A program made the translations under genes and the position numbers. DNA of 64,000 nucleotides from Novilysobacter viscosus. Its GTDB lineage: Bacteria > Pseudomonadota > Gammaproteobacteria > Xanthomonadales > Xanthomonadaceae. Below are positions 9,552 to 44,904 of the stretch, piece after piece. Every line of letters starts with the position of its first letter. Position 1 is the first letter of the stretch. The stretch lies in contig NZ_JBJMAV010000001.1 in the NCBI RefSeq assembly GCF_046600715.1, positions 149,980-213,979 on the forward strand, given 5' to 3'. The notes under the pieces are model-generated. The model was not told where the DNA came from, searched no databases, and was given only the letters and a program-made list of their open reading frames with translations.

Positions 9552-9605
9552 GGGGTTACCCCAGGTGAACTCGGAATATTGTCGGTTGCGGGCGTCGGGG
9601 CTTCT

Positions 9606-9619
9606 TTGACCTGGGTCAA
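9606..9619. promoter_or_regulatory. FNR-type box TTGACctggGTCAA upstream of ccoN
   Basis: Perfect 5-4-5 palindrome centred about 61 bp upstream of the ccoN ATG. Confidence 0.6.
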
Positions 9620-9740
9620 TTCATGTCTCCGGGTTTCATGTCATGGGCATGCGACCGGTGGCGAAGCCGCTTCGGCCCATGCAGCCCTCTTCGTCCGCCA
9701 TGGCGGGATAAAACGTTAGCAGTCAGCAGGGCGCGTCAAT

Positions 9741-10334
9741 TCAGCCCGGACCGGCGGCCCGGCGGACCGCGGCGACGAACTCCGGATCCGGTTGGCTGCC
9801 CATCTGCTCGGTTCGCGCCAGCACCCGCCCCTGGGCGTCAAGCAGGATCAGGGCGCTGGTGTGGTTGAAGTCACCGTCGGCCAGTGCCCGGTAGCGGATG
9901 CCCAGCACGCCGGCCACGCCGCGGACCTGGGACGGTGCGGGGCTGGCCAGCGTCCAGCGCTGCGTATCGAGGCGCCTGGCGTCGACCACCGAGCGCAGCG
10001 CGACGGGGGTGTCGTGCGCGGGATCCATGCTGATCAGCAGGATGTCCACGCGCTGGCGCTGCGCCGGCGTCAGTTCGCGTTCGATCGCCTTGCCCGCGTC
10101 GACGATCAACGGGCAGATGTACTGGCACGACGTATAGAACATCGCCACCACCTGCGGCTTGCCGCGGCGGGCTGACCACGGCTGGCGGCGGCCATCCTGG
10201 TCGGTCAGGTCGACCTTGAGCCGGTACACCGAGTCGCGCGGCAGCGGCGCGGCGTCGGCGGCCGTTGCACCGGGAGTGGCAATGGCCAGGACCAGGCAGG
10301 CGAGGACGAGGACGGAGTGGCGCAACGGTGTCAT
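9741..10334 (-). CDS. SCO1/SenC family copper chaperone
   Basis: Thioredoxin-fold CxxxC (CQYICP), signal peptide/TM, 197 aa. Last gene of the nirK-nirV-sco operon. Confidence 0.85.
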   Translation of the reverse strand: MTPLRHSVLVLACLVLAIATPGATAADAAPLPRDSVYRLKVDLTDQDGRRQPWSARRGKPQVVAMFYTSCQYICPLIVDAGKAIERELTPAQRQRVDILLISMDPAHDTPVALRSVVDARRLDTQRWTLASPAPSQVRGVAGVLGIRYRALADGDFNHTSALILLDAQGRVLARTEQMGSQPDPEFVAAVRRAAGPG

Positions 10335-11116
10335 GGCAGGTCCCGGGCGCAGCGGAATCCGAGGTTGGCGGTGGTGTCGGCGGCGCCCAGAGAGGACAGC
10401 ATGGCCACCCGCATCAGCACCGCATAGTTCTCGCGGTCGTCCATCGACAGCGCACCGGCACCGCAGAAGCGCGCGTTGTCGGGGTCGCCCTGGTTGCGGT
10501 TGTCGGCATCGACCAGCAACGAGGAGAAATCATCGGTCCATTCCCAGACCAGTCCGTGCAGGTCCTGCACGCCATAGGCGTTGGGGGTCTGCAGGCCGGC
10601 ACGGGGCAGGGCGGTGTTGGACGGACGCGAGTACCAGCCGAGGATGCGCTCGCGCCAGACAGGGTCCTTGCGTGCATCGCGGCGGGTCTCGTCGGCGGCG
10701 GCCACGTATTCCCATTCGTTCCAGGTCGGCAGGCGCGCGCCCTGCGATTCGCAGTAGGCCGAGGCGGCAAACCAGCTGACCTGGACGACCGGCGCCTCGG
10801 GCAGGGTGGTCCCGAGCGCGGTCGGGCCCGCCCAGTGCGACAGGTAGCGCGGTTCGGCCATGACGGTGGCGGCGCGGTCGCGGCGCCATTCCGGTTCAGC
10901 CTTGACGAAGGCCAGGAACTCCGCATTCGTCACCGGTCGCTTCATCAGCGCGAACGGTGCGATACGGACGTTCCCGGGCACGTCCTCGTACGCGAGTGCG
11001 CTGCGGAAGCTGCCGCCCGGCAGCTTCACGTACCCCCCGCCGCTGGCAACCTGGCCGGCGACGGGCAGGGCCAGCAACAGCGCCGACGCCAGTACGAGTG
11101 CACGCACCCGGTCCAT
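10331..11116 (-). CDS. nirV: formylglycine-generating-enzyme family protein NirV
   Basis: FGE-sulfatase fold motifs (WEWT, RGGS-like, C-terminal GFRCAR). Signal peptide. Located immediately downstream of nirK, as is typical for nirV. Confidence 0.7.
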   Translation of the reverse strand: MDRVRALVLASALLLALPVAGQVASGGGYVKLPGGSFRSALAYEDVPGNVRIAPFALMKRPVTNAEFLAFVKAEPEWRRDRAATVMAEPRYLSHWAGPTALGTTLPEAPVVQVSWFAASAYCESQGARLPTWNEWEYVAAADETRRDARKDPVWRERILGWYSRPSNTALPRAGLQTPNAYGVQDLHGLVWEWTDDFSSLLVDADNRNQGDPDNARFCGAGALSMDDRENYAVLMRVAMLSSLGAADTTANLGFRCARDLP

Positions 11117-11117
11117 C

Positions 11118-12644
11118 TCAGTGGCCGGCCGACGCGTTGGCGGGTTTCACCGCGCGGATCTGGGCGGCCTCTTCCTTGGTCACGCGGCCGCCGGGGTTGC
11201 CCCAGCTGTTGAGCACGTAGGTGGAGATGTTGGCAACCTCGTCGTCGGTCAGCTGGCTCATCGGCGGCATGATCGAGTTGTAGTCGACGCCGTTGACCGT
11301 GACCGGCCCCTGCAGGCCGTGCAGGATCACGCGCGGCACCGCCTTGGGGTCGTTGGCGATGTAGTCGGCACCGGCCAGCGGCGGGAACACGCCTTCCATG
11401 CCCGCGCCATTGACCTGGTGGCAGGTGGAGCACGTGCCCTGGTAGAGCGCCTCGCCGGCCTTGACCTGCTGCTCGACGGTGAGCTCGCCGGTGCTGGCGG
11501 ACGCGGCCGCTACCGCAACAGCGGCCAGGTTGGGCTGGGCGCGGTCGCCGATGTAGACCGCGTCCACTTCCAGGCCCGAGTAGATTTCCTTGTTCTCCGG
11601 TCCGCTCGCCTGGAGGATGCCCAGGGCGCCCTTGTTGAACGCGCGGAACAGGCTGTGGTCGACCAGGATGTAGCTGCCGGGGACTTCCATGTGGAATTCC
11701 ATCATGGCCGCGCCGCCCGCCGGGATCAGCGTGGTCTGCACGTTCTCCTGGAAGTTCGTGCCGCCCTCGTACCAGACCTTGTCGAAGATCTCGCCGATCA
11801 CGTGGAAGCTCGACACCAGGTTCGGGCCACCGTTGCCCACGTACAGGCGGACGGTCTCGCCGGTGTTGGCGGTCAGCACCTTGTCGCCGGTCATCGAGCC
11901 TTCCGAGCCGTTGAACAGCACGTAGGTCGGGTTCTCGTCGATCGCCTTCTCCATGTCGAACGGCTGCAGGCCCTTCTCCCGGTACTTGCCGGCGGTGTAG
12001 AAGTCGCCCTGCATCACGTAGTACTCCTTGTCGACCGGCGGCAGGCCCTCCGGCGGCTCGACCAGGATCAGGCCGTACATGCCGTTGGCCACGTGCATGC
12101 CCACCGGCGCGGTGGCGCAGTGGTAGACGTAGAGGCCGGCGTTGAGCGCCTTGAAGGTGAAACGGGTCACGTGGCCGGGCGCGGTGAAGCTGGAGGTCGC
12201 GCCGCCGCCCGGGCCGGTGACGCCGTGCAGGTCGATGTTGTGGGGCATCTTGCTGTCGGGCATGTTGCGCAGGTGGAATTCCACCGTGTCGCCCTGGCGA
12301 ACGCGGATGAAGCTGCCGGGCACGGTGCCGCCGAAGGTCCAGAAGGTGTAGTCCACGCCCTCGGAGATCGGCATCACCTTCTCGACCACGTCCAGCTCCA
12401 CCACCACCTTTGCCGGGTAGTCGCGGCCGGTCGGCGGCGGCACCAGCGGCGGGCTGGTCAGCACCGCATCGATCGGCTTGCCCTGGGGTGGTCCGAAGTC
12501 GCCCTTGCGCGAGCCGCCGGTTCCTTCATCGGCAGCGCCGGCACGCGGTGCGTCGGCGGTGGCGTCGTCATTGTCCTGGCCGCAACCGGCCAGGAGCAGT
12601 GCGGCGATGGCGGCGGAAGCCATGAATCGGGTAGCACGGATCAT
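11118..12644 (-). CDS. nirK: copper-containing nitrite reductase NirK with C-terminal cytochrome c domain
   Basis: Type 1 and type 2 Cu ligand motifs ([28 protein letters not shown]), a C-terminal CSTCH heme motif and a lipoprotein signal (LLLAGCGQ). Start chosen at MIRATRF with a GGAG RBS. The upstream 57 aa of the ORF were rejected. Confidence 0.85.
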
Positions 12645-12728: not shown

Positions 12729-12742
12729 CTGATCGTGGTCAA
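12729..12742. promoter_or_regulatory. FNR/NNR-like box cTGATcgtgGTCAA, about 92 bp upstream of nirK
   Basis: 9/10 match to TTGAT-N4-ATCAA-type palindrome, followed by an A7 tract. Confidence 0.45.
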
Positions 12743-12817: not shown

Positions 12818-12831
12818 TTGACCTGCGTCAA
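12818..12831. promoter_or_regulatory. FNR/NNR box TTGACctgcGTCAA in the nirK / UbiT-like divergent region
   Basis: Perfect palindrome, 116 bp upstream of the 12947 ATG and 174 bp upstream of nirK. Confidence 0.55.
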
Positions 12832-12946: not shown

Positions 12947-13861
12947 ATGACGGCACGCACCGCAGGCAACACTGCAGCCGCAGGCACGGTGGGCACCGCC
13001 CCCGACCCGGTGGGCGGCCCCGCGATGGGCACACTGCGGGGCCTGCGACGCGCCATCGATGTGATCGACGACGCGTCGCTGGTCCTGCTTGCCACGCGCG
13101 GCCAGCTGGCACGTGTTGCGGGCCGAATCAAGACGGCACGGGGGCTTCCGCTGCGGGATCCGGCACGCGAGGCACGGGTGCACGCGCGGGCCCGGGCCCT
13201 GGCCCAACGCCTTGGGATCGAGCCGGACACCGCCCGGGCCTTCCGGGCGGTCGCGGTCGCCGATGCCTGCCGTCGCCAGGGCCTGCGACCTGATCTGGGT
13301 CAATGCGCCGGGGCCGGGGGCCCGTTCACGATGGCGGTCATGCCCGGTCCCGTAGAAGCACACCCCGCCGTGCGGCACCTGCTGCGCTGGCTCCCGCCTC
13401 CCTCTCGCCTGGCGCCGGTGCTGCGGCGGTTGCCGGCGGCTGCGAGCCATCAGCTGCTGGGACGCGCGCTGGAAAAGGTCCTTGCGACGCCGGTGTCGAA
13501 CGGCGACTTCGAGTTCATGGTGGGCCGGCGGATCGGCATCGAGGTCATCGACCTGGGGCTGCGCTGGGTCATCCAGTGCGACGAGGCGGGGCTGCGCGCC
13601 GGCGACGGCGCCGCCGAGGCCACGGTGCGCGGCACCGCGACCGACCTGTTGCTGCTCGCCAGCCGGCTGGAAGACGCCGACACGCTGTTCTTCCAGCGCC
13701 GCCTGGTGCTGACCGGGGACGTGGAGCTCGGGCTGACGGCGCGCAACCTGCTGGAAAGGTTGCCCTGGGAGTCGGTGCCATTGGGCATCCGGATCGGCCT
13801 GAATCGCGCTGCACGCCTGGCCAGCGCGGCGCGCGAGGCCCACCACGGGCGCACCGCCTGA
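12947..13861 (+). CDS. AroQ chorismate-mutase-like domain fused to an SCP2 sterol-carrier domain (UbiT-like)
   Basis: N-terminal LRGLRRAIDVIDDASLVLLATRGQLARVAGRIKTARGLPLRDPAREARV matches the AroQ catalytic helix pattern (R..R..K..D..RE). The C-terminal part, DFEFMVGRRIGIEVIDLGLRWVIQC...LTGDVELGLTARNLLERL, matches an SCP2 fold. Internal ATG with a GGGAG RBS. Confidence 0.65.
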   Translation: MTARTAGNTAAAGTVGTAPDPVGGPAMGTLRGLRRAIDVIDDASLVLLATRGQLARVAGRIKTARGLPLRDPAREARVHARARALAQRLGIEPDTARAFRAVAVADACRRQGLRPDLGQCAGAGGPFTMAVMPGPVEAHPAVRHLLRWLPPPSRLAPVLRRLPAAASHQLLGRALEKVLATPVSNGDFEFMVGRRIGIEVIDLGLRWVIQCDEAGLRAGDGAAEATVRGTATDLLLLASRLEDADTLFFQRRLVLTGDVELGLTARNLLERLPWESVPLGIRIGLNRAARLASAAREAHHGRTA

Positions 13862-13865
13862 CATG

Positions 13866-13900: not shown

Positions 13901-13910
13901 CCACTGCCGC

Positions 13911-16458: not shown

Positions 16459-16472
16459 TTGACCGTCATCAA
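16459..16472. promoter_or_regulatory. FNR box TTGACcgtcATCAA upstream of fabA
   Basis: 5-4-5 palindrome centred about 62 bp upstream of the fabA ATG. Confidence 0.55.
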
Positions 16473-16526: not shown

Positions 16527-17042
16527 ATGGATCGACCTTCTTCGTTCGACTATGAGCAATTGCTGGCCTGCGGCCGTGGCGAGATGTTCGGCCCCGGCAA
16601 CGCGCGCCTGCCGCTACCGCCGATGCTGATGTTCGATCGCATCACCGAGATCTCGACCCAGGGCGGTGCCCACGGCAAGGGCGTGGTCCGGGCCGAGCTG
16701 GATATCCGCCCGGACCTGTGGTTCTTCGATTGCCATTTCCAGGGCGATCCGGTCATGCCCGGCTGCCTCGGGGTGGATGCGATGTGGCAGTTGTGCGGGT
16801 TCTACCTGCCCTGGCTGGGCGCCCCCGGCCGCGGTCGCGCCCTGGGCGTAGGCCAGGTCAAGTTCAGCGGCCAGGTGCTGCCCGACGCCAAGCGGGTGAG
16901 CTACGAGATCGACATTCGCCGCGTGATGCGCGGCAAGCTGGAGTTGGTGATCGCCGACGGACGCACCCTGGTGGACGGTCGTGAGATCTACACCGCCAGC
17001 GACCTGAGGGTCGGGCTGTTCACCTCCACGGAGGGGTTCTGA
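16527..17042 (+). CDS. fabA: 3-hydroxydecanoyl-ACP dehydratase/isomerase
   Basis: 171 aa, FabA hot-dog fold with active-site His/Asp context ([24 protein letters not shown]). Confidence 0.9.
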
Positions 17043-17043
17043 G

Positions 17044-18279
17044 ATGGCCGCCGGAAAAGGCAGGCGCGTGGTCGTCACCGGGATGGGCGTGGTCTCGTGC
17101 CTGGGCAATGACCGTGGCAGCGTGACCCGTTCACTGCGCGAGGGCCGCGCGGGGATCACGTTCATCCCCGAGTACGCGGAACTGGGCCTGCGCAGCCACG
17201 TGGCCGGTGCACCGCAGATCGACCTGGCCGAGCAGATCGACCGCAAGCTCAAGCGCTTCATGGGCGACGCGGCCGGCTACGCCTACGTGGCCATGCGCGA
17301 TGCCATCGCCGACGCCGGACTGGCCGACGACCTTGTCCGTAGTGCACGCACGGGGCTGATTGCCGGGTCCGGCGGGGGTTCGCCGCAGTGGCAGATCGAA
17401 ACCGGTGACCTGCTGCGCAAAAAGGGCGTGCGCAAGGTCGGCCCGTACATGGTGCCGCGCACGATGGGCTCCACGGTGTCGGCCGCGCTGTCCACCGCCT
17501 TCGGCATCCGTGGCCTGAGCTATTCGATATCGGCGGCCTGCGCGACATCCGCCCATTGCATCGGGGCGGCGGCCGACCTGATCCGGCTGGGACGGAAGGA
17601 CGTGATGTTCGCCGGTGGCGGCGAGGAGCTGCACTGGGGCATGACCGCCCAGTTCGATGCCATGGGTGCGCTGTCCAGCAAGCACAACGACACCCCGGCG
17701 TCGGCTTCCCGGCCGTATGACGTGGACCGCGATGGCTTCGTCATCGCCGGCGGCGGCGGCATGCTGGTGCTGGAAGACTACGAGCACGCCCAGGCGCGCG
17801 GCGCGACCATCATCGCCGAGCTGGTCGGCTACGGCGTGACCTCCGACGGCGTCGACATGGTGGCGCCCTCTGGCGAAGGCGCGGTGCGTTGCATGCGCAT
17901 GGCGCTGGAGGGGCTGGACGGCAACAGCGTCGGCACCATCGATTACCTCAATACCCACGGCACGTCCACGCCGGTGGGCGACGTGGTCGAGCTGGGCGCG
18001 GTGCGCGAGGTATTCGGCGACGCAGTGCCGCCGTTGTCCTCGACCAAGGCCCTGTCGGGGCACTCGCTCGGCGCGGCCAGCGTGCACGAGGCGATCTTCT
18101 GCCTGCTCATGATGCAGGAGGGTTTCGTCGCCGGCTCGGCCAACATCGAGACGCTCGACCCCAAGGCCGAGGGGTTCCCGATTCTTCGCGAAAGCCGCGA
18201 TGCAGAGCTCGGGACGGTGATGTCCAACAGCTTCGGCTTTGGCGGCACCAACGCCACGCTGGTGTTCGCGAAAGCCTGA
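17044..18279 (+). CDS. fabB: 3-oxoacyl-ACP synthase I
   Basis: KAS I family with active-site Cys ([10 protein letters not shown]) and His/His ([18 protein letters not shown]). 411 aa. Confidence 0.9.
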
Positions 18280-18400: not shown

Positions 18401-18460
18401 CGACGTCGCCCTTGACCCGCGTCATGGCGGGGTGCCCGCCGCGGGCGCGACGATTGCGCC

Positions 18461-18942: not shown

Positions 18943-19830
18943 TCAGGGGGATTGGGCGGCCGCCGGCAGCACCATGCCCGGCTCGCCATGCCAGTAGCCG
19001 TTCCGCTCGCCCAGCATCGGGGCCGCGTCGGGGGATGCACGGGCACGGTCGAAATGCGCCACGATTTCGCGGCTGCCCTCGGCCTGGGGATAGATCCGGA
19101 GCAGGTCGACGCCGAGTGCGCGCAGTGCCGGCAGTTCCGGTCCGAGGTCGGTGGTTTCCTCTCCCTGCACCTGGATCCCGTTGATCCGCAGGAACGGCCG
19201 CCCGTCGCGGGTGGCCAGCAGCATCCCGTCCGGATAGTCGATGCAGCGGAAGCCGCACTGGTCCTTGGGCACGTCCAGCGCGCGTGCGGTGAAGCAGCGT
19301 GCCGAGAACGACAGCGGCAGGCGGCCCCAGGCGATCACTTCCAGCTCGGGCATGGCGTGGCCGGTGGCCTGCATCGCGTCGCGCAGTTCACGGATCAGGA
19401 CTTCGCCCTGCTCAACCCCGGGCACCCACCGCCGCAGGCCGTCCTCCATCAGCATCGCCAGCGCTTCGTGGTTGTAGATGTTGAGCGTCGGGCCGGCCAC
19501 GAACGGCAGCCCCGCCTGCCTGCACAGCTGCACCGCCGACAGGTCGTTGGCTTCCAGCCAGCAGCCGCCTTCCTCGACCAGCCGCGAGAGCACGCCCAGT
19601 TCCGACTCGGCCTCGATCAGGGCCAGGCTCGACAGCACCACCTGCTTGCCGCTGCCCGACAGCTCGCCGGCCAGGTCGATCCAGTCCCGGGTGCCCAGTT
19701 CGCGGCGCTTGCTGCATACCGTCTCGCCCAGGTAGACCACGTCCAGGGGCCAATCGACGGCCTCGCGGTAGAAGGCGAGGGTGCGCTCGCGCGGCCAGAA
19801 GTACTGCAGGGGGCCAAGGCTGAGTTTCAT
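18943..19830 (-). CDS. ubiV: U32-family protein UbiV (O2-independent ubiquinone hydroxylation)
   Basis: Start MKLSLGPLQYFWPRE. Peptidase-U32 fold with conserved Cys (CIDYPDG, CFTARALDVPKDQCGFRC). Directly downstream of ubiU. Confidence 0.75.
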   Translation of the reverse strand: MKLSLGPLQYFWPRERTLAFYREAVDWPLDVVYLGETVCSKRRELGTRDWIDLAGELSGSGKQVVLSSLALIEAESELGVLSRLVEEGGCWLEANDLSAVQLCRQAGLPFVAGPTLNIYNHEALAMLMEDGLRRWVPGVEQGEVLIRELRDAMQATGHAMPELEVIAWGRLPLSFSARCFTARALDVPKDQCGFRCIDYPDGMLLATRDGRPFLRINGIQVQGEETTDLGPELPALRALGVDLLRIYPQAEGSREIVAHFDRARASPDAAPMLGERNGYWHGEPGMVLPAAAQSP

Positions 19831-19840
19831 CGACGGGTCC

Positions 19841-20839
19841 TCAATGCCACGAGCGGTGGTAGGGGCCGAGGGTGGTCTGGTGGCCTTCGGCCTGGCTCGA
19901 CAGCGAGCGCTGCCACTGCGGATCCACGGTCCATGCATCCGGCGCGGCGGCGTGACGGTCCAGCGCGGCCCGCCATGTACGGGTTACCGCACCGACGTAG
20001 GCCACGCCCCGCTGCCTGCCTTCGATCTTCAGCGCCGCGACGCCGGCGCGGGCAAGCCGCGGCAGCAGTTCCATCGTATTGAGGCTGGTGGGCTCCTCCA
20101 GCGCATGGAAGGTCTCTCCGCCCACTTCGAACCGGCCCTTGCAGACGGTGGGATAACCGGCAGGTTCACTGGGTTCGAAGCGGTCGATCAGCACGTCATT
20201 GAGGTGCGCGGTGCGGCTGCCGTCGTCGAGCTCGTCCCAGCGGACGAACCTGGCCGGCGAGCACACCCCGTGCCGGTTGGGCGAGGCACCGGTGACGTAG
20301 CTGGACAACTGGCAGCGACCCTCGACCATGATGCACAGGCTGCCGAAGGCGAACACCTCGATGGCGACCGGCGAGCGCTGGCACAGGCGTTCGACCTGCT
20401 GGATGGACAACACGCGCGGCAGCACCGCGCGGGAAATGCCGAAGCGCTCGTAGGCGAACCGCAGCGCCGGCTCGGAGGTCGCCGAGCCTTGCACGGACAG
20501 GTGCCGCGGCAGGTCCGGATAGCGCCGTGCCGCGTAGGCCAGGATCGCGATCTCGGCGGCGATGATCGCGTCGCAGCCGAACGCGGCCGCGCGGTCGACC
20601 GCGGCCTGCCACATCGGCAGGCGCGCGCTGTCGGGATAGGTGTTGAGGGCCAGGTACACCTTGGCGCCCTTCGCATGCGCATAGCGGATGCCGGCCTGCA
20701 GCTCCTGGTCGGAGAAGTTCAGGCCGGGAAAGGCGCGGGCGTTGGTCTGGTCGCGGAAGCCGGCGTAGACCGCGTTGGCCCCGGCGTTTACGGCCGCCTG
20801 CAGTGCCGGCAGGTTGCCGGCAGGACATACCAGTTGCAT
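19841..20839 (-). CDS. ubiU: U32-family protein UbiU
   Basis: MQLVCPAGNLPALQAAVNAGANAVYAGF is a typical U32/YhbU N-terminus. Cys cluster (CIMVEGRCQLSSY, CSPARF). 332 aa. Confidence 0.75.
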   Translation of the reverse strand: MQLVCPAGNLPALQAAVNAGANAVYAGFRDQTNARAFPGLNFSDQELQAGIRYAHAKGAKVYLALNTYPDSARLPMWQAAVDRAAAFGCDAIIAAEIAILAYAARRYPDLPRHLSVQGSATSEPALRFAYERFGISRAVLPRVLSIQQVERLCQRSPVAIEVFAFGSLCIMVEGRCQLSSYVTGASPNRHGVCSPARFVRWDELDDGSRTAHLNDVLIDRFEPSEPAGYPTVCKGRFEVGGETFHALEEPTSLNTMELLPRLARAGVAALKIEGRQRGVAYVGAVTRTWRAALDRHAAAPDAWTVDPQWQRSLSSQAEGHQTTLGPYHRSWH

Positions 20840-20895: not shown

Positions 20896-20909
20896 TTGAC
20901 CTGGGTCAG
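20896..20909. promoter_or_regulatory. FNR-like box TTGACctggGTCAg upstream of ubiU
   Basis: 9/10 palindrome, about 64 bp upstream of the ubiU ATG. Same spacer sequence as the ccoN box. Confidence 0.5.
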
Positions 20910-21650
20910 GTGCCGAGGCCGTTGAGGCGTCTAGGATCGGCTGGCAGACCCCCAGGTCATCCGGAGCTACCCTTGAACGTTATCGCCCGATCTTCCCTCC
21001 TGCCGCTGCTGCTGTGTCCCGCCTTTGCGCTTGCCGCGCCGGCGCAGGACGCGCATGCGGATGCGCATCGCGAACACTCAACGCAGTCCCCGCAGTCCCC
21101 GCAGTCCCCGCAGTCCCCGCAGTCCCCGCAGTCCCCGCAGTCCGGTCATTCCGGTCATTCCGTTCATTCCGTTCATTCCGGGCATTCCGTTCATTCCGGG
21201 CATTCCGTTCATTCCGGGCATTCCGGGCATTCCGGGCATTCCGGGCATTCCGGGCGTGCAGCCGACCCTGCGCACGGGCAATCGACCGGCGGTGCAGGGA
21301 CCAGCGCCCCGCCCGACGGCGTGCGCTTCCAGGCAGACGCACCGCTGATGAAGGGCATGCGGCGCATGTCGGAACTGGTGCAAGGGCTTCAACACGGTCG
21401 ACAGGGCCATCTGGGGCCCGACCAGGTCAGGCAGCTCGCCACCGGCGTCAACCAGGCCGCCGCCGCGATGTTTGCCGAATGCCAGTTGCCTCCGGAGCCC
21501 GATGCGGCGCTGCATGGCTTGCTGGCCCGACTGATGGCCGGGGCTGGCGCGCTGGACGCCGACCCTGCCAACCTGGCGCCGCTTGATGACATGGATGCGG
21601 CGGTACGCGACTACACCCGGCTGTTCGACGACCCCGGGTTCCCGGACTGA
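20910..21650 (+). CDS. secreted His-rich tandem-repeat protein (SPQ x6, HSG/HSV x about 13) with a CpxP/Spy-like C-terminal domain
   Basis: Signal-like segment LNVIARSSLLPLLLCPAFALAAP. The true start may be TTG at about 20973 after a GGAG. Composition-biased repeats. C-terminal helical domain with an LxxDQxxQL-type motif. Confidence 0.55.
   Translation: MPRPLRRLGSAGRPPGHPELPLNVIARSSLLPLLLCPAFALAAPAQDAHADAHREHSTQSPQSPQSPQSPQSPQSPQSGHSGHSVHSVHSGHSVHSGHSVHSGHSGHSGHSGHSGRAADPAHGQSTGGAGTSAPPDGVRFQADAPLMKGMRRMSELVQGLQHGRQGHLGPDQVRQLATGVNQAAAAMFAECQLPPEPDAALHGLLARLMAGAGALDADPANLAPLDDMDAAVRDYTRLFDDPGFPD
21078..21260 (+). repeat. in-frame 9-nt tandem DNA repeats (CAGTCCCCG x6, then CATTCCGKK x about 14)
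   Basis: Direct visual repeats, period 9 nt. Confidence 0.9.
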
Positions 21651-23107: not shown

Positions 23108-23438
23108 GGGCGGGGCGGGGCGTGGAGGGACACCGAGCCTCGCAGGTGGCGATCCGCCGTGCCCTGACGCCAGTCAAGCCGGGCGCGGGCCGGGTTGGCG
23201 GCAGCAGGCGCGCGGCCAACCGGGACGATCCGCGGACGCGGGAGCCGCACATACGTGTTCAATGGCAGTGCCGCGGCACGCTGCGCGGCGACAAGGCGTC
23301 TTGTCGAGCGACGCCCTGCCGAACCGAAGTGCACGGGCAAGGGACCGTCGCGACCCCGCCGCTCGTTGGGGTACCAGGCCGCGACTTGCGTCGCTCCTGT
23401 ATGAGCTGCGGCCGGTCCTGCCGGCCCAGCGCCGCCGG

Positions 23439-30597: not shown

Positions 30598-30667
30598 CGT
30601 GGAACCTCGCCCGCGCAGGCGGGCCATCCATGCTGCAATCGGGAGGGCAGGCGTCGGAGGCGGTCGC

Positions 30668-30925: not shown

Positions 30926-30992
30926 TTCGTGTGTCCTTGCGGGGTGGGCAATGCCGGCGGCAGGGCTGCCGCCAGCCATCAGAAGGCCGGGG

Positions 30993-33008: not shown

Positions 33009-33035
33009 TGCTACCTCTCCTTGGGATTCGAGCTC

Positions 33036-34437: not shown

Positions 34438-35093
34438 GATGCGCTTGCCTCGTCATGCGGCCACACCTCATCACGCAGGAAGGCCCCGTATGCATCGACA
34501 CATGCGATGACATTGCCCGCAAGTGCTTCGATCTCGAACAGGATGTCGGCCAGGGGGGAATGCGTGCCGAGCGATCCGAACATGACATAGCTCGGCACGC
34601 CGGCGACCGGCTCGATGCCCATCGTGGTCAGCGGCCACAGCTTGTGCGTGCGCAGGACGCGGGCATTGAAGGCGGCCGGATCGGACACGTGGTCGAGCGG
34701 CCACATCAACACCTGGACGACGATCTGCAGGCCGCCGACGGCGACGAAGACCGGAAGGTCACCGTAGTCGCGCATCACCAGGCGCAGCGTCGGGTCGGCA
34801 CCCTCGGAGCGGTGCACTTCGATGCTCCCGGATCCAACGGGGGTGGATCCTTCGATGGCGCGCTGCAGTGCGGCCAGCGTCCACCCCGGTTCGCCCGGAG
34901 TCTCGCGCAGGCAGTCGATCCCCGGGGCTTCGCCGGACGCGGGCGCCTGGCGAAAGCGTTGTTCGACAGCGGCCAGATCCTCCGAGAACTCGGGGCGGAT
35001 CCACACGTCCTTCTTGACGAGGCCGGCGTTGCGCATCCGCGCGCGGAACTCGCGTACGTAATCGGCGGACGAGCGTGGCTTCCCTGCTTTCAT
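34434..35093 (-). CDS. YjfI-like DUF2170 protein with an about 90-aa N-terminal extension
   Basis: C-terminal 130 aa, LPVFVAVGGLQIVVQVLMWPLDHVSDPAAFNARVLRTHKLWPLTTMGIEPVAGVPSYVMFGSLGTHSPLADILFEIEALAGNV, fits the YjfI family. First gene of the operon. Confidence 0.65.
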   Translation of the reverse strand: MKAGKPRSSADYVREFRARMRNAGLVKKDVWIRPEFSEDLAAVEQRFRQAPASGEAPGIDCLRETPGEPGWTLAALQRAIEGSTPVGSGSIEVHRSEGADPTLRLVMRDYGDLPVFVAVGGLQIVVQVLMWPLDHVSDPAAFNARVLRTHKLWPLTTMGIEPVAGVPSYVMFGSLGTHSPLADILFEIEALAGNVIACVDAYGAFLRDEVWPHDEASAS

Positions 35094-38732: not shown

Positions 38733-39965
38733 TCAGCCGGGACGGCCGTCGATGCGGGGGGTCAGGTAGATGGCGCCGATGCGCACCACCCAGGGGGCGA
38801 ACGCCAGCAGCCAGCCGACTGCGGCCGCCGCCTGCCACGCCATGCCGTCGGGCGCGGCTTCGGCCACCACGCGCGTCACCGCGACCAGCTGGATGGCCAC
38901 GAAGGCGAACCAGGCGGTCGGCGACATTTCCAGCGCGCGGCCGGAGTGGCCCTGGGTGACACGGGTCACCATCGCCACCAGCACGCTGCCGAAGAAGCCG
39001 ATGAACAATGCATGCGCGGGGCCACGGCCCAGCCAGTACACGCCGGTCAACTCGTAGGCGATGCTCTGGCCGACATAGAGCGCGAACGCCAGCGGAAGCC
39101 AGGCCATGCCGACGAACAGCACCGCCAGGATCCCCGGCTTGGGACCACGCGGCCACCAGCGCCACAGCATCAGTCCGGTCAGGCCCAGCAGCGGCAGGTC
39201 GACCACCCACAGCCAGCCGTAGGCGTGGAAGAGTTCAAGCACCAAATGGGCCAGCGACAGGGGCCAGAACGCACCGAGCAGCCACATCGGCCGCCACGCC
39301 GTGTATCCGGGCACCACGCGGCCGGCAAAGAACGGGAACATGCGGTGTGCCACGGTCATGTAGACCGGGAGAAGCAACCCGAACGTGCCCATCTTGATGC
39401 TGGCGAACGCCCACAGCGGGGATGCCCCCAGCACGAACGCGGTCCATGCGAGGACACCGCAGAAGCCGAGCACCAGCGCGCCGAAGCATGAGCGCGCATG
39501 CCAGGTCACGCCCTGTTCGCGCCACAGCACCGGCGCAAGCGTGAGCAGGCCTGCCAGCCAGCCGGCCATGGTCATCAGCAGGCCCACGGTGATGCCGGCG
39601 TCCCAGCCGATCGCACCCAGCAGCGTCGCCAGTTGTCCGCCGAACAGACCAAGCCCGACGGGCACGTAGCGCCAGCGGTCGAAGTCCGGCTGGCCGGTCC
39701 ATTTCGGGAAGGTGGTGAGCAGGAAGCCGAAGAAGAAGCTGGGCAGCATCTGGTATTGCATGACGAACGCATGCAGCCAGCCCGCGGGCTGCGCAGGTTG
39801 CGGCAGCGCCATGCCCGGCCAGCGTGCCGATGCGAGCCATGCGGCCCACCACGCCATGGCCAGCAACAGGTTGGTGGCGCCGATGAAGAACATCAGGCGG
39901 TGTGGAGCCTGGCCAAGCACGGCGGGCGAAATCTTCCGGGACGGCGGGGACGTGGTGTTCTGCAT
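38733..39965 (-). CDS. nnrS: NnrS-family heme-copper membrane protein (NO-stress response)
   Basis: 410 aa with about 12 TM and conserved His-rich helices. Internal start MQNTTSPP. The upstream 423 aa of the 833-aa ORF overlap norB out of frame and were rejected. Confidence 0.8.
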   Translation of the reverse strand: MQNTTSPPSRKISPAVLGQAPHRLMFFIGATNLLLAMAWWAAWLASARWPGMALPQPAQPAGWLHAFVMQYQMLPSFFFGFLLTTFPKWTGQPDFDRWRYVPVGLGLFGGQLATLLGAIGWDAGITVGLLMTMAGWLAGLLTLAPVLWREQGVTWHARSCFGALVLGFCGVLAWTAFVLGASPLWAFASIKMGTFGLLLPVYMTVAHRMFPFFAGRVVPGYTAWRPMWLLGAFWPLSLAHLVLELFHAYGWLWVVDLPLLGLTGLMLWRWWPRGPKPGILAVLFVGMAWLPLAFALYVGQSIAYELTGVYWLGRGPAHALFIGFFGSVLVAMVTRVTQGHSGRALEMSPTAWFAFVAIQLVAVTRVVAEAAPDGMAWQAAAAVGWLLAFAPWVVRIGAIYLTPRIDGRPG

Positions 39966-40000
39966 GTCGACAGGATGAAGGTTGGTGGCGTGCAGGTCAT

Positions 40001-40014
40001 TGATTTGGATCACG
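40001..40014. promoter_or_regulatory. FNR/NNR box TTGATttggATCAc upstream of nnrS
   Basis: 9/10 match to TTGAT-N4-ATCAA, centred about 42 bp upstream of the nnrS ATG. Confidence 0.6.
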
Positions 40015-40046
40015 GGTGCCACGGATGACCGGGGTCGGCGGCGCGG

Positions 40047-40081
40047 CCGGCCCCAAGAAAAAGGGCGGCCACGTGGCCGCC
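40047..40081 (-). terminator. rho-independent terminator downstream of norB
   Basis: GGGCGGCCACGTGGCCGCCC perfect hairpin followed by TTTTTCTT on the minus strand (an A5 run on the plus side, so potentially bidirectional). Confidence 0.7.
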
Positions 40082-40102
40082 CTTTTCCTGTCCAACATCC
40101 GG

Positions 40103-42430
40103 TCAGCCGGACTGGATCTCCGACCCGTGCTCCCCGGGCTCCTCCAGCTTCGGCTTCACCCAGAGGCGCAGCACGAAGTAGATCAGGGCCAGGGCGCCGA
40201 TGCTGAAGATCGTGTCGCCGGGCACCCGCATCCACACCAGCAGGTCGACGATGGGCTTCTGCATGAACTCCGCCGAGCGGGCATACCAGTAGCCATGCTC
40301 GATCGCCGCCAGCAGCTGCATCGTGCCCAGCGGCAGCAGCGTGAGCACCGCCATCAGTGCCAGGCCGATGTTGAGCGACCAGAAGCTGATGCGCAGCGCC
40401 TTCTCGTTCCACACCTGGTTGGGTCGCAGGCCGCGCATGCAGAACAGCACCAGCGCGATGCCGAGCATGCCGTACACCCCGAACAGCGCGGTGTGGCCGT
40501 GCAGCGGCGTCAGGTTGAGGCCCTGCATGTAGTAAAGCGAGAGCGGCGGGTTGATGAGGAAGCCGAACAGGCCCGCACCCACCAGGTTCCAGAACGACAC
40601 CGACAGGAAGAAGAAGATCGGCCAGCGGTAGCGTTGCATCCACGGCGTGGCCTTGCCAAGCCTGTAGGTGTGGTACGCCTCGAAGCCGATGTAGGCCAGC
40701 GGCACCACTTCCAGGGCACTGAAGCTCGCGCCCAGCGCAATCACCGCGGTCGGGCTGCCGACGAAGTACAGGTGGTGCAGGGTGCCCAGCACGCCGCCGG
40801 TCATGAACACGATGGTGGCGAACAGCACCGCCACCGACGCGGTCGACGCGCGCAGCAGGCCCAGCTTGGTGAAGATCAGTGCCATCACCGCGGTGGCGAA
40901 CACTTCGAAGAAGCCTTCCACCCACAGGTGCACCAGCCACCAGCGCCAGTACTCGACGATCGAGATGTGGGTGTGTTCGCGCCACATCAGGCCGGCGGCG
41001 AAGAACACGCCGATGGCGACCGTGGACAGGAACAGCAGCCCGACGATGGATTTGGTGTCGGTCTTCGGACCGGTCAGCACCGGCCACAACGCACGGCCCA
41101 CCATCGTCAGCCACAGCAACAGGCCGATGAACAGGAACCACTGCCAGAAGCGGCCGATGTCGGCGTACTCCCAGCCCTGGTGGCCGAACCAGAAGTTGTT
41201 GGCGATGCCGAGCTTCTGCATCACCGCGAACCATTGCCCGGCGAACGCGCCGACGACGATGATCACGAGGCAGGCGAACAGGAAGTTGACGCCCAGCCGC
41301 TGGAAGCGCGGTTCATGGCCCGACAGCGCCGGTCCGATGTAAAGGCCCGTGCCCAGCCACGCAACCGCGATCCACAGCACCGCCAATTGCGTGTGCCAGG
41401 TGCGGGTGATCGAGTACGGCAGGATTTCCGAAAGCTGGAACCCGTAGGCTTGCTGGCCTTCGATCTGGTAATGCGCGGTCATCGCGCCGAACAGGATCTG
41501 CACCAGGAACAATGCCAGCACCAGCCAGAAATACTTGGCCGTGGCCCGCATCGAGGGCGTGACCTTGAGTGCGGCCAGGGGATCCCGGTCGGGGATGCGG
41601 TGGCCGTCGTCATGGCCGTGGGTCACGGCATGGTGCCAACCCAGCAGCGCGATACCGGCGATCAGGAACAGCACGCTGAAGGCCGACCACACCCACGTGC
41701 TCGGCGGCGGCGTGTTGCCGACCAGCGGCTCGCCGGGCCAGTTGTTGGTGTAGGTGACGCGCTTCTCGGCGATGCCCGGACGGTCCGGTGCCACCGTCTC
41801 CGACACGCCTACGTGGCGCTCGGTCGTCGCCGCCCATGCGGTCCACCAGAAGAACGAGGCCAGTGCACGGCGATGCTCGGCATCGGGCACCGTGTTGTTC
41901 TTCATCGCGTAGGCTTCGCGCAGCTCCGCGGTGGCCGGGTCGTTGCCGAACAGGCTCTCGTAATGCGCCGACACGTTGGACATCGCCACCACCCGGTCCA
42001 TGTCCAGGGTGATCGTGCCGGTCGCCGGGTCGTAGGTGTTCTCGCGCATCATTTCCTGCAGGCGGCCCTGCAGGGAAGCGCGGTCACCGGCCGGAAGCTG
42101 CTCGTATGTCGCCATGCCGCCATCGGCACGCGCCCACATGTTGAGGATCTCGATGGCCTCGCGGTGCAGCCAGTCCGCGCTCCAGTCCGGGGCGACGTAG
42201 GCGCCGTGGCCCCAGATGGAACCCAACTGCATGCCGCCGGTGGTCTGCCAGACCTGGCGACCCCGCTCCATGTCGGCACGCGTGTAGATGACGGTGCCGT
42301 CCTGGGCCACCACCTGCTCCGGCATCGGAGGCTTGTACCGGTTGATTTCGCCGCCGGACCACAGCAGCACGCTGAACGATGCAATGAGCAGGACGGCAAG
42401 TCCTATCCAAAGCCTTCTTGTATTCCCCAT
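40103..42430 (-). CDS. norB: quinol-dependent nitric-oxide reductase (qNor, single-subunit NorB/NorZ)
   Basis: 775 aa: N-terminal periplasmic extension plus a 12+ TM heme-copper-oxidase-like core with conserved His. Confidence 0.9.
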   Translation of the reverse strand: MGNTRRLWIGLAVLLIASFSVLLWSGGEINRYKPPMPEQVVAQDGTVIYTRADMERGRQVWQTTGGMQLGSIWGHGAYVAPDWSADWLHREAIEILNMWARADGGMATYEQLPAGDRASLQGRLQEMMRENTYDPATGTITLDMDRVVAMSNVSAHYESLFGNDPATAELREAYAMKNNTVPDAEHRRALASFFWWTAWAATTERHVGVSETVAPDRPGIAEKRVTYTNNWPGEPLVGNTPPPSTWVWSAFSVLFLIAGIALLGWHHAVTHGHDDGHRIPDRDPLAALKVTPSMRATAKYFWLVLALFLVQILFGAMTAHYQIEGQQAYGFQLSEILPYSITRTWHTQLAVLWIAVAWLGTGLYIGPALSGHEPRFQRLGVNFLFACLVIIVVGAFAGQWFAVMQKLGIANNFWFGHQGWEYADIGRFWQWFLFIGLLLWLTMVGRALWPVLTGPKTDTKSIVGLLFLSTVAIGVFFAAGLMWREHTHISIVEYWRWWLVHLWVEGFFEVFATAVMALIFTKLGLLRASTASVAVLFATIVFMTGGVLGTLHHLYFVGSPTAVIALGASFSALEVVPLAYIGFEAYHTYRLGKATPWMQRYRWPIFFFLSVSFWNLVGAGLFGFLINPPLSLYYMQGLNLTPLHGHTALFGVYGMLGIALVLFCMRGLRPNQVWNEKALRISFWSLNIGLALMAVLTLLPLGTMQLLAAIEHGYWYARSAEFMQKPIVDLLVWMRVPGDTIFSIGALALIYFVLRLWVKPKLEEPGEHGSEIQSG

Positions 42431-42485
42431 CGAGGCATCTCCGTGAATGGCTGCATCATGCTCGCGGTTGGCGCGGTCAACCGCG

Positions 42486-42499
42486 TTGACTCAGGTCAA
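42486..42499. promoter_or_regulatory. NNR/DNR-type box TTGACtcagGTCAA upstream of norB
   Basis: Perfect palindrome, 56 bp upstream of the norB ATG. Confidence 0.65.
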
Positions 42500-42662
42500 G
42501 TTTCGTCAGGACGATTCTGCCAACCAGGCCCGCGCTGTCAGGAACCGGGCCCCAGCGCCACGTGCAGCCGTGTGCATCGCAGCGCAGCGCGGCGCTGCGC
42601 GGACCATGGTCGGCCGTGTCCCGGGAGCGGGAAAGTGACTTCCGCGTTGTTACGGCCGGCGC

Positions 42663-43415
42663 TCAGGCGCGCAGGACGGGCTCGGCGAGTTCTTCGAGCT
42701 TCGGGCGGTCCAGCAGCTCAAGTTCGCGCCGATCCACGACCAGCAGGCCGTCCTTCTGGAAGCGGCGCAGCACCCGGCTGACGGTTTCCGGCGCCAATCG
42801 GAGGTAGTTGGCGATGTCGGTGCGCGCCATGGTCAGCTGGAAGCGGTTGGGCGAAAACCCGCGCGCGGCGAGCCGGCGTGCCATGCCGACCAGGAACGCG
42901 GCCATGCGCTGGTCGGCCGTCCAGTCGCCGGCCAGCAGCGCTGCCCTGCCGATGTCGCGGCTCAACAGCCGGAACAGGTGCTTCTGCAGCCCCGGCAACC
43001 GGGATGCAAGCACCGCGATCTTGGGGAACGAGAACCGGCACAGCATCGCCGTGTCCAACGCCACCGCGTTGCAGGGGTAGGTCTCGCCGTCGATCGCATC
43101 CAGCCCGATCACTTCACCGGGCAGGTAGAAGCCCAGCACGTGTTCCCGGCCGTCGCGGTCGATCACGTAGGTCTTGACGGTGCCGGCGCGGACCGCGGCG
43201 ATCGCCTCGAAGGGATCACCCACCCGGAAGATGTGGTCGCCGGCATGGAACGGGCCGACGTGCTCGACCAGCACGTGCAGGTCCATCAGCGAGCGCTTGT
43301 CCATGCCCTCGGCCATGCAGGCCTGGGAAAACGCGCAGGTCGAGCAGAACGAGAACTCGTCGCCGTCGTCGGAGAGCGTGCGCTCGTCCTGGCGGGGAAA
43401 CGCGGTCGGCTTCAC
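42663..43415 (-). CDS. fnr: FNR/ANR-type global anaerobic regulator (4Fe-4S Cys cluster present)
   Basis: N-terminal CSTCAFSQAC...C cluster, cNMP-like domain and C-terminal HTH (ANYLRLAPETVSRVLRRFQ). 250 aa. Confidence 0.85.
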   Translation of the reverse strand: MKPTAFPRQDERTLSDDGDEFSFCSTCAFSQACMAEGMDKRSLMDLHVLVEHVGPFHAGDHIFRVGDPFEAIAAVRAGTVKTYVIDRDGREHVLGFYLPGEVIGLDAIDGETYPCNAVALDTAMLCRFSFPKIAVLASRLPGLQKHLFRLLSRDIGRAALLAGDWTADQRMAAFLVGMARRLAARGFSPNRFQLTMARTDIANYLRLAPETVSRVLRRFQKDGLLVVDRRELELLDRPKLEELAEPVLRA

Positions 43416-43434
43416 GCGCGCCCCCGGGGCGATG

Positions 43435-44832
43435 TCAGATCGCTCGGGAGAAGCGGGGCGCGGCCGGGACGGGGGACGGGTCGAGGTATCGGTCGAAGCA
43501 CATCGCTATGTTACGCAGCAACAGCCGTCCGCGCGAGGTGGCGACGATCCTGCGCTCCTCGACCCGGACCAGCCCGTCCTCCATGAGCGGGTGGAGCCGG
43601 TCCAGCGCGTCGGCGAAGTACTCGCCGAAATTGATCAGGTAGCGGCGTTCCAGCGCGTCGATGGGGATCTGGCCCTGGCACATCAGGCTCTGGATCAGGT
43701 CGGCGCGCAGCTGGTCGTCCTCGCTCAGTCGCATGCCGCGGAAGACCGGCAGGCGGCCCTCGTCAAGCGCGATCTGCCAGCTGGGCAGGTCGCGCGGGTT
43801 CTGGCTGAAGCTGTCGCCGATATGGCTGATCGCGCTCACCCCGAGCCCGATCAGGTCGGTGTCGGCGTGGGTGGTATAGCCCATGAAATTGCGGTGCAGT
43901 CCGCCGCGCGCCTGCGCTGTGGCGAGGTCGTCGTCCGGCAGCGCGAAGTGGTCCATGCCGATGTAGGAATAGCCCGCGCCGGTGAGCTTCTCGATGGCCA
44001 GTTGCAACAGCGCCAGTTTTACTTCCGGTGCCGGCAGGTCAGCTTCCCCTATCTGGCGCTGCGGCTTGAACATGGCCGGCAGGTGGGCGTAGCTGTACAC
44101 CGCCAGCCGGTCCGGGCGGGCCTGGACCACGGTATCCAGCGTGCGCGAGAACCCTTCGAGGTTCTGCTTGGGCAGGCCGTAGATCAGGTCGACATTGACC
44201 GATCGGAAGCCATGCTCGCGGCAGGCATCGATGATCGCCACCGTCTCCTCGACGCTCTGGATGCGGTTGACCGCCTGCTGCACCACCGGGTCGAAATCCT
44301 GCACGCCAAGGCTGGCGCGATTGAAGCCGATGGCGGCCAGTTCACCCACCTCGGCCGGCGTGATGAAGCGCGGATCCAGCTCGATCGACAGGTCGCGGTC
44401 GCGCGACTCGGAGAAGTGGAACTGGCTGCGCAGGGTTTCCACCACCTCGCCCAGCTGGGCCGGCGAGAGGAAGTTGGGCGTGCCGCCGCCGAAATGGAGC
44501 TGGATCACCTCGCGGTCGCGGTCGAACAGCTCGGCCATCATCGCGATCTCGCGGTACAGGCGGACCAGGTAGGTTTCGCCCCGCGCCAGGTCACGGGTGA
44601 TGATCCGGTTGCAGCCGCAGTAGAAGCACGGGCTCATGCAGAACGGCACGTGCACGTACAGCGAGAGCCGGCGCGGAATGGGGTCGCCATTGCTGGCGGC
44701 TACCGTATCGCGCAATTCACGCTCCCCGAAGCCGGCGTGGAACTGCGGCGCGGTGGGGTAGGAGGTGTAGCGCGGACCGGGCCGGTCATAGCGACGGAGC
44801 AGGCCGGGGTCGAATTGGGCGGTAGCGATCAT
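43435..44832 (-). CDS. hemN: oxygen-independent coproporphyrinogen III oxidase (radical SAM)
   Basis: MIATAQFDPGLLRRYDRPGPRYTSYPTAPQF is the canonical HemN N-terminus. CxxxCxxC radical-SAM motif (CMSPCFYCGC). 465 aa. Confidence 0.9.
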   Translation of the reverse strand: MIATAQFDPGLLRRYDRPGPRYTSYPTAPQFHAGFGERELRDTVAASNGDPIPRRLSLYVHVPFCMSPCFYCGCNRIITRDLARGETYLVRLYREIAMMAELFDRDREVIQLHFGGGTPNFLSPAQLGEVVETLRSQFHFSESRDRDLSIELDPRFITPAEVGELAAIGFNRASLGVQDFDPVVQQAVNRIQSVEETVAIIDACREHGFRSVNVDLIYGLPKQNLEGFSRTLDTVVQARPDRLAVYSYAHLPAMFKPQRQIGEADLPAPEVKLALLQLAIEKLTGAGYSYIGMDHFALPDDDLATAQARGGLHRNFMGYTTHADTDLIGLGVSAISHIGDSFSQNPRDLPSWQIALDEGRLPVFRGMRLSEDDQLRADLIQSLMCQGQIPIDALERRYLINFGEYFADALDRLHPLMEDGLVRVEERRIVATSRGRLLLRNIAMCFDRYLDPSPVPAAPRFSRAI

Positions 44833-44866
44833 GCGTGCAGGCTATGGCGCTGCCTGCGCGGGTGCC

Positions 44867-44880
44867 TTGATCTCGGTCAA
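44867..44880. promoter_or_regulatory. FNR box TTGATctcgGTCAA upstream of hemN
   Basis: Centred 41.5 bp upstream of the hemN ATG. Confidence 0.65.
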
Positions 44881-44904
44881 ACCCCGCCGTCAGGCGGGCA
44901 AGGC

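Follow-up and report, generated by a model that had tools for sequence, protein, structure and literature searches.

Gene clusters and palindromes in the window

The 64,000-nucleotide stretch of Novilysobacter viscosus DNA analyzed here (the window; G+C content 69%) carries genes for a cbb3 oxidase, for denitrification, and for oxygen-independent biosynthetic steps, and upstream of many of these genes there are 14-nucleotide palindromes resembling the sites recognized by regulators of the FNR family. These palindromes, the two FNR-type regulators encoded in the same window, and a UbiT protein fused to a chorismate mutase (CM) domain are the subject of this work. The gene map was drawn from codon-position G+C and from Pfam and NCBIfam matches, and the gene groups concerned are the following.

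1..653 (+): fnr1, C-terminal 217 codons, cut by the left window edge
6348..9551 (-): ccoNOQP, cbb3 oxidase
9741..12644 (-): nirK, a nirV-like FGE-sulfatase gene, and senC/SCO1
12947-13861, 13911-14948, and 14949-16403 (+), divergent from nirK: CM_2-UbiT fusion open reading frame (ORF), nadA, and nadB
16527..18279 (+): fabA-fabB
18943..20839 (-): ubiU-ubiV, O2-independent ubiquinone hydroxylases
21611..23107 (-): ubiD
38733..44832 (-): hemN-fnr2, norB, and nnrS cluster
42663..43415 (-): fnr2, 250 aa, within the preceding cluster

A preliminary description of this DNA had listed nine FNR/NNR-type palindromes and had proposed that they define a single anaerobic regulon across 35 kb. All nine 14-mers were found, the nnrS site beginning at 40000 and not at 40001, and two further sites absent from that list were recognized at 23164, upstream of ubiD, and at 13290, inside the CM_2-SCP2 ORF. 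The resulting eleven candidate FNR boxes are given below, with the position of a -10-like hexamer counted from the box center toward the gene.

9606..9619 (-): box of ccoNOQP, TTGACCCAGGTCAA in gene orientation; center 61.5 bp from the ccoN ATG (9551); -10-like GACAAT at +29.5
12729..12742 (-): box of nirK-nirV-senC, TTGACCACGATCAG; center 91.5 bp from the nirK ATG (12644); -10-like TATGCT at +28.5
12818..12831 (no strand assigned): TTGACCTGCGTCAA, a perfect palindrome in the gap separating nirK from the divergent CM-ubiT; class II -10 in neither direction
13290..13303 (+): box in the linker of the CM_2-SCP2 ORF, CTGATCTGGGTCAA; CACGAT at +30.5; in-frame ATG (13340) at +43.5
16459..16472 (+): box of fabA-fabB; center 61.5 bp from the fabA ATG (16527); -10-like CAAAAT at +29.5
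18412..18425 (+): box of a gene for a 149-aa membrane protein, TTGACCCGCGTCAT; center 42.5 bp from the ATG (18461); GACGAT at +30.5; predicted leaderless
20896..20909 (-): box of ubiU-ubiV, CTGACCCAGGTCAA; center 63.5 bp from the ubiU ATG (20839); CACCAT at +30.5
23164..23177 (-): box of ubiD, TTGACTGGCGTCAG; center 63.5 bp from the ATG (23107); GAGGCT at +29.5
40000..40013 (-): box of nnrS, GTGATCCAAATCAA; center 41.5 bp from the ATG (39965); CATCCT at +29.5; predicted leaderless
42486..42499 (-): box of norB, TTGACCTGAGTCAA; center 62.5 bp from the ATG (42430); GAGCAT at +29.5; GGAGA ribosome-binding site
44867..44880 (-): box of hemN-fnr2, TTGACCGAGATCAA; center 41.5 bp from the hemN ATG (44832); TAGCCT at +29.5; no space for a ribosome-binding site, predicted leaderless

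The strict Escherichia coli consensus TTGAT-N4-ATCAA (TTGATNNNNATCAA) had no exact match in the window, and the local half-site consensus is TTGAY/RTCAA. When the number of matches was compared with that expected from dinucleotide-preserving shuffles of the window, the exact TTGAY-N4-RTCAA motif (TTGAYNNNNRTCAA) was found at five sites (9606, 12818, 16459, 42486, and 44867) against 0.06 expected, and motifs with at most one mismatch were found at 15 sites against 1.43 expected. Three of the four sites that had been called perfect (9606, 12818, and 42486) are true TTGAC/GTCAA palindromes; the fourth, 16459, is a TTGAC/ATCAA-type hybrid, as is 44867. The intergenic DNA, which makes up 4.7% of the window, contains every exact site and half of the ten one-mismatch sites (binomial P ~1e-10), and 10 of the 19 intergenic regions of at least 50 bp bear a site, all ten of them within 9.5-45 kb. 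Likewise, a weight matrix trained solely on sites from relatives gave 14 matches of at least 12 bits in the window, compared with 0.56 in the shuffled sequences.

The sites are not spread evenly over the 35 kb. They form two clusters, at 9.6-23.2 kb and 40.0-44.9 kb, and between them lie 16.8 kb of unrelated genes, including genes for PLP enzymes, with no intergenic site at all. Thus, of the single regulon proposed before, the FNR type is retained and the continuous extent is not, and an FNR-type low-oxygen regulon arranged in two clusters is well supported in silico. One-mismatch matches within coding sequence were present at 8143, 8515, 13290, 21822, and 26624. Those at 8143, 8515, 21822, and 26624, together with a further one at 32797 given by the weight matrix, fall in ccoN, ubiD, and a DUF3686 gene, do not occur at the same place in relatives, and were set aside as chance matches.

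Conservation of the boxes and promoter geometry

The conservation of the boxes was analyzed in 113 related loci, i.e. 33 genome loci collected with the UbiT ORF and 80 metagenome loci collected with FNR2, from Lysobacter, Luteimonas, Thermomonas, Rhodanobacter, Dokdonella, and metagenome-assembled genomes or metagenomes; a box was counted as conserved when it had at most one mismatch and lay upstream of the gene. The gene orders ubiT-nadA-nadB-fabA-fabB-...-ubiV-ubiU-ubiD and hemN-fnr2-norB-nnrS are widely kept among these relatives. The hemN box was present in 50 of 50 relatives (49 exact, with the spacing to the start kept in the 50 loci), the norB box in 42 of 42, the ubiU box in 27 of 28 (mostly as CTGAYCCANGTCAA), the fabA box in 17 of 19 with its center 60-64 bp from the start, the nirK box in 12 of 13, and the ccoN box in all four relatives. 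The nnrS box was found in 22 of 38 relatives in one count and in 9 of 10 in the other, and the ubiD box in 5-6 of 16, at 60-68 bp, on the Lysobacter, Thermomonas, and Luteimonas side. The box of the 149-aa membrane protein gene was kept in the sole relative that has this gene (locus L007). Genes internal to the operons served as controls and had almost no upstream box: nadA (0/27), nadB (0/24), ubiV (0/28), senC (0/13), nirV (0/12), ccoO (0/4), and fabB (0-1/19). Conserved half-sites with a variable spacer are the signature of a protein-binding site, and the persistence of the boxes across Lysobacterales at fixed distances from the genes bears out the assignment of FNR-type boxes to low-oxygen and denitrification promoters.

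A second line of evidence comes from the position of the -10 element. At 10 of the 11 sites of the window an xAxxxT hexamer begins 28.5-31.5 bp from the box center on the gene side, compared with a background of 8% (P ~1e-10), and the same layout was also seen in relatives. This geometry corresponds to that of a class II FNR promoter, in which the box is centered at -41.5 and the -10 element occupies positions -12 to -7. A promoter scanner found no two-hexamer sigma-70 promoter in the first cluster and one in the second, which was not at a box, as expected for activator-dependent promoters.

The boxes had been reported to lie 36-92 bp upstream of start codons. This holds for ten sites, whose centers are 41.5-91.5 bp from the start (that of 13290 being measured to the internal ATG), but not for 12818, with 122.5 bp between its center and the called CM-UbiT start (12947) and, on the other side, 180.5 bp to that of nirK. 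Two distance classes could be distinguished. In the class of about 62 bp (ccoN, 61.5; fabA, 61.5; norB, 62.5; ubiU, 63.5; ubiD, 63.5) there is a ribosome-binding site, and in the class of about 42 bp (hemN, 41.5; nnrS, 41.5; the 149-aa protein gene, 42.5; internal ubiT, 43.5) the 41.5-43.5 bp between the box center and the ATG (44832, 39965, 18461, and 13340, respectively) leave no space for a leader or a ribosome-binding site, so that leaderless transcripts are predicted. The nirK box, at 91.5 bp, belongs to neither class. The norB gene is followed by an intrinsic terminator at 40055..40082 (-), a perfect 20-nt hairpin (GGGCGGCCACGTGGCCGCCC) and a T-run (TTTTTCTT), which sits just before the nnrS box and thus sets norB apart from the nnrS promoter. 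This terminator was read by eye, since its almost loopless hairpin was missed by the terminator scanner, the calls of which did not exceed chance and were disregarded.

FNR-type regulators and alternative explanations

Two FNR-family regulators are encoded in the window, as had been noted before. FNR2 has a CSTCAFSQAC motif (CX2CX5C), a fourth cysteine in AMLCRFSF, and an ETVSR recognition helix. The complete FNR1, read from the other assembly of the same organism, is a 256-aa protein with CAKCSLHELC and a fourth cysteine in EVCEIPF. The cysteine cluster is therefore not a property of one paralogue, as had been described, but of both. The Pfam families cNMP_binding, HTH_Crp_2, and Crp match both proteins, and the ETVSR (E--SR) helix is present in the two. 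FNR1 and FNR2 are 40% identical, both paralogues are kept in the order Lysobacterales, and FNR2 is 77-89% identical across the 80 metagenome loci. The corresponding cysteines of E. coli FNR are C20, C23, C29, and, in the beta-roll, C122, and in this subgroup of regulators dimerization and DNA binding depend on an oxygen-labile cluster. The motifs of FNR1 and FNR2 suggest that both are of the oxygen-sensing FNR type.

The fnr2 gene begins 19 bp past hemN (43415-43435), and in none of 71 related loci is there a box directly upstream of it. Because of this short gap and the lack of a box of its own, fnr2 is probably cotranscribed with hemN, and a hemN-fnr2 operon driven from the hemN box would imply positive autoregulation of FNR2.

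Taken together, these data suggest, with a probability of about 0.85, that the palindromes are binding sites of a dimeric [4Fe-4S]-dependent FNR-type activator, which would be FNR1, FNR2, or both. According to the model proposed here, when oxygen is scarce the holo-dimer would bind TTGAYC-NN-GRTCAA centered about 41.5 bp upstream of the transcription start, stand in for the -35 element, and recruit RNA polymerase (class II activation). Its predicted targets would be, on the one hand, the genes of low-oxygen respiration and denitrification ccoNOQP, nirK, norB, and nnrS and, on the other hand, those of oxygen-independent substitutes for oxygen-requiring biosynthesis, i.e. hemN, ubiUV, ubiT, ubiD, nadAB, and fabAB; the location of fnr2 within the hemN operon would create a positive feedback of FNR2 on itself. 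Several points weigh against this model. The conservation counts treat phylogenetically related loci as independent, and the sites used for training the weight matrix were themselves picked with the same consensus. The best family of the two regulators, Fnr (NF008365), gives 218.4 and 193.9 bits, just under its 228-bit cut-off. The perfect palindrome 12818 has no class II -10 element in either direction. Finally, a DNR/NnrR-type regulator or another Crp/Fnr paralogue encoded elsewhere in the genome could use some of the boxes.

This last point leads to a split regulon, in which an oxygen-sensing FNR would control hemN, ccoN, ubiUV, and fabA, and a second local FNR or an outside DNR/NnrR would control nirK, norB, and nnrS. 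The two paralogues are only 40% identical and yet both maintained, and the boxes have class-specific imperfections that persist across genera: those of hemN are near-perfect, those of norB vary at the last base (15 of 42 exact), and those of nnrS and ubiU have CTGA as first half-site. Moreover, 38 of the 42 norB boxes have a C at position -1, and the frequent flanking C..G resembles the CTTGAT-N4-ATCAAG motif of DNR; in Pseudomonas and Paracoccus the denitrification genes are controlled by DNR/NNR through FNR-like boxes (PMC1274295). Nevertheless, neither the window nor the 113 related loci examined encode a regulator of the DNR/NnrR type, i.e. one devoid of the cysteine cluster, the E--SR motif of the recognition helix is identical in both paralogues, and the class differences are small and could reflect a division between paralogues or simply tune the affinity for one regulator. 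A split regulon is rather unlikely. By the same evidence, the window offers nothing in favor of the suggestion that spacers might reflect a preference for FNR versus DNR/NnrR: both paralogues combine the cysteine cluster with the E--SR helix. A cyclic nucleotide-dependent regulator of the CRP/Clp type acting at the sites in place of FNR would be very improbable. Xanthomonadales do encode the CRP-like protein Clp, and the nnrS box includes one GTGA half-site, but CRP-type sites require GTGA, whereas position 2 of the half-site is a T in every conserved site and position 1 is T or C and rarely G; besides, an E--SR helix of the FNR type and the Fe-S cysteines are present in both regulators next to the boxes, and the set of genes is typical of an oxygen regulon.

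The two remaining explanations concern the origin of the palindromes. The spacer CCAG is common to ccoN and ubiU, with its complement CTGG at 13290, and the reuse at ccoN and ubiU had been taken as a hint of recent duplication of promoter modules or of regulator preference. However, the spacer is simply the family-wide consensus C-[T/C]-[A/G]-G of the matrix from relatives, found in all promoter classes and genera, so that the motif is in fact an extended palindrome, TTGAYC-NN-GRTCAA. Duplication should have left a longer stretch of similarity around the boxes, and none was seen: ccoN and ubiU have an identity of 29% in their 80-nt flanks, as compared with an all-pairs mean of 30%. In addition, each box is kept at its own gene across genera, as exemplified by the ubiU box, whose CCAN spacer and imperfect CTGA half-site are maintained in 27 of 28 relatives, which belong to different genera. 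A spread of the boxes by promoter-module duplication was therefore rejected as exceedingly improbable. The least credible explanation of all is that the motifs arose by chance, or from composition or coding sequence, and have no regulatory role; the five one-mismatch matches in coding sequence, four of which are not at the same place in relatives, speak for it, but it is refuted by counts 10- to 80-fold above the shuffle expectation, by the strong concentration in intergenic DNA, by a fixed-position conservation reaching 50 of 50 orthologous promoters, and by the maintenance of the -10 element at the correct distance.

The FNR-type circuit proposed here is of a well known kind. It shares with E. 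coli FNR and Pseudomonas aeruginosa Anr the class II arrangement of an inverted repeat and its inferred -10 spacing, the CX2CX5C plus fourth cysteine sensor motif, and hemN, the cbb3 oxidase, and ubiUV as common targets. It differs from them in its half-sites, which are predominantly TTGAC/GTCAA and extend as C..G into the spacer, and in having two cysteine-cluster paralogues with no DNR beside the nir/nor genes. Moreover, leaderless transcription is predicted for four promoters, the predicted ubiT promoter is located within coding sequence, and fabAB, ubiD, and nadAB are further predicted targets. In other proteobacteria, FNR/DNR boxes have been described for nirK, norB, nnrS, and hemN (PMC1274295), and in this respect the set resembles the DNR/NNR/NnrR regulons described by Rodionov et al. 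2005 (PMC1274295), with the difference that DNR and NnrR have no N-terminal cysteine cluster and both regulators of the window do. In P. aeruginosa the effect of Anr on fabA is minor and probably indirect (PMC3462791), and FNR control of fabAB, which is not established in other systems, is a prediction of the present analysis. A few of its members are new, and two by-products stand out, the probable embedded ubiT promoter and the CM-UbiT fusion. A literature search found no description of such a regulon in denitrifying Lysobacterales, and the boxes provide a testable oxygen-regulon map for these bacteria (Lysobacter, Rhodanobacter, Thermomonas, and relatives), which are relevant to nitrogen cycling in soil and wastewater. 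The predicted FNR control reaches fabAB, ubiD, and, via the ubiT promoter, nadAB. This suggests that in facultative denitrifiers the respiratory genes are grouped with oxygen-independent versions of steps in biosynthesis that otherwise require oxygen.

The predicted ubiT promoter, the chorismate mutase fusion, and neighboring genes

The assignment of a box to ubiT differs from that in the preliminary description, which had attributed the palindrome 12818 to nirK and ubiT. The palindrome itself was found as described, but its assignment to ubiT is doubtful, and the conserved ubiT box is 13290. As a ubiT promoter, 12818 was rejected because the fusion ORF is preceded by a box within 300 bp in just 4 of 27 relatives, the genes upstream of it vary, and there is no class II -10 element. 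A second box in the nirK/CM-ubiT region, at variable spacing, is also present in loci L002, L003, L005, and L007. Of all eleven sites, 12818 has the least certain role; it could serve full-length CM-UbiT as its upstream promoter, or nirK as a distal site.

The 13290 box is the highest weight-matrix match in the window. A box at this position of the linker is present in 29 of 34 loci (window included), 15 of them exact, and nearly all loci with the box have a CAnGAT hexamer after it, with an in-frame ATG at +44 to +47. Translation from ATG 13340 would yield a 173-aa protein, and the UbiT protein of E. coli has 174 aa. For the Gln codon within the linker box, 26 of 29 loci use CAA, in genomes where CAA accounts for only 10-15% of the Gln codons. 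In the Rhodanobacter loci L031-L033, in which no match to the CM domain was detected, the exact box and the ATG are kept, and in L033 there is a stop codon about 70 bp upstream of the linker box. All of these observations make 13290 a likely internal FNR promoter that would produce a leaderless transcript for a stand-alone UbiT followed by nadA and nadB; the latter two genes lack a box and would be driven by this embedded promoter. The linker would then be a clean case of a transcription factor site constraining codon choice. In agreement with this prediction, E. coli Fnr activates ubiUV and the P2 promoter of ubiT, the P1 promoter being Fnr-independent (PMC10470549), and the embedded box parallels the Fnr-dependent P2.

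UbiT, UbiU, and UbiV themselves resemble their counterparts in the known O2-independent ubiquinone pathway (PMC6747719, PMC10990095). Their NCBIfam equivalog scores exceed the cut-offs (UbiU, 523 versus 440 bits; UbiV, 342 versus 275; UbiT domain, 120 versus 46.9), and FNR control is predicted for them as in E. coli. Moreover, UbiTUV are essential for denitrification in P. aeruginosa (10.1101/2020.03.22.002311), and their colocation with denitrification genes in the window fits this requirement. Unlike in the known UbiT/UbiU/UbiV systems, UbiT is fused here to an AroQ-type chorismate mutase domain, carries the internal FNR box and ATG, and is followed by nadA and nadB.

In the fusion ORF (12947-13861) the AroQ-type CM_2 domain is joined in frame to UbiT (SCP2), and no in-frame stop between the two domains was observed in any locus examined. 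The CM_2 domain scores 55.5 bits against a gathering threshold of 27, and the six catalytic residues of the E. coli PheA chorismate mutase (R11, R28, K39, D48, R51, and E52) align identically with it. Chorismate mutases of the Protein Data Bank (PDB) match the domain at E = 9e-6 to 6e-3; its score is under the NCBIfam equivalog cut-off (53.8 versus 120), and a chorismate mutase activity of the domain is therefore putative, although plausible. Among the best 120 database homologues all combine CM_2 and SCP2, and every taxonomically named match belongs to Lysobacterales; a literature search found no paper joining UbiT with chorismate mutase. The product of chorismate mutase is prephenate. In 2024, prephenate was shown to be the oxygen donor of the UbiU/UbiV hydroxylations (PMC10990095), and the fusion could be regarded as a natural "Rosetta stone" for this role.

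The kynurenine route to NAD includes three oxygen-dependent steps. The NadAB pathway is a known oxygen-independent bypass of it (PMC8262920), and Xanthomonas, which has no NadA/NadB, uses the kynurenine route (PMC10907753). Because these relatives without nadAB depend on the oxygen-requiring pathway, the nadAB genes next to ubiT look like an anaerobic bypass of it. With somewhat less than even confidence, we tentatively propose that one FNR-type circuit across Lysobacterales wires an "oxygen independence kit" composed of HemN, UbiU/UbiV/UbiD, FabAB, NadAB as the bypass of the kynurenine route typical of Xanthomonadales, and CM-UbiT making prephenate on site, with the leaderless internal promoter giving rise to CM-UbiT and UbiT isoforms and to anaerobic nadAB expression. 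If this were true, the fusion would offer natural evidence, of an independent kind, for the prephenate donor mechanism and for substrate channeling in the anaerobic Ubi complex.

Some other features of these loci should be mentioned. In about 18 related loci a gene for a polytopic membrane protein of about 420 aa without Pfam match, which is not in the window, lies directly upstream of CM-ubiT (L008:8303-9577 and counterparts), and a conserved TTGAYCCAGRTCAG box is located about 285-320 bp upstream of it. A gap of about 166 bp in nadB of assembly GCA_036409185.1 relative to the window (window 15191-15361; L001 ~2688-2693) was dismissed as an assembly artefact, since there is an N at the junction in that assembly. 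The NirK protein (11118-12644) has a C-terminal cytochrome c domain, i.e. it is a copper nitrite reductase of the type with a fused electron donor, and the norB product is a quinol-type NO reductase.

Downstream of ccoNOQP, at 669-6042, there are ccoGHIS and a DsbD-like gene. The 149-aa membrane protein encoded from ATG 18461 has four predicted transmembrane segments and a weak CopD match (E = 0.029). The ORF 20973-21650, divergent from ubiU, encodes a probable secreted protein with tandem SPQ and SGHS/VHS histidine-rich repeats, which may bind metal; neither this protein nor the 149-aa protein has a significant match in Pfam and NCBIfam. The block between the two clusters (23439-35093), in which chance matches are the only FNR-like boxes, encodes TelA, a 1810-aa DUF3686/DUF7902/AAA protein, PspA/IM30, a DUF2170 protein, and two proteins of 671 and 211 aa without family match, and may be a stress or defense module.

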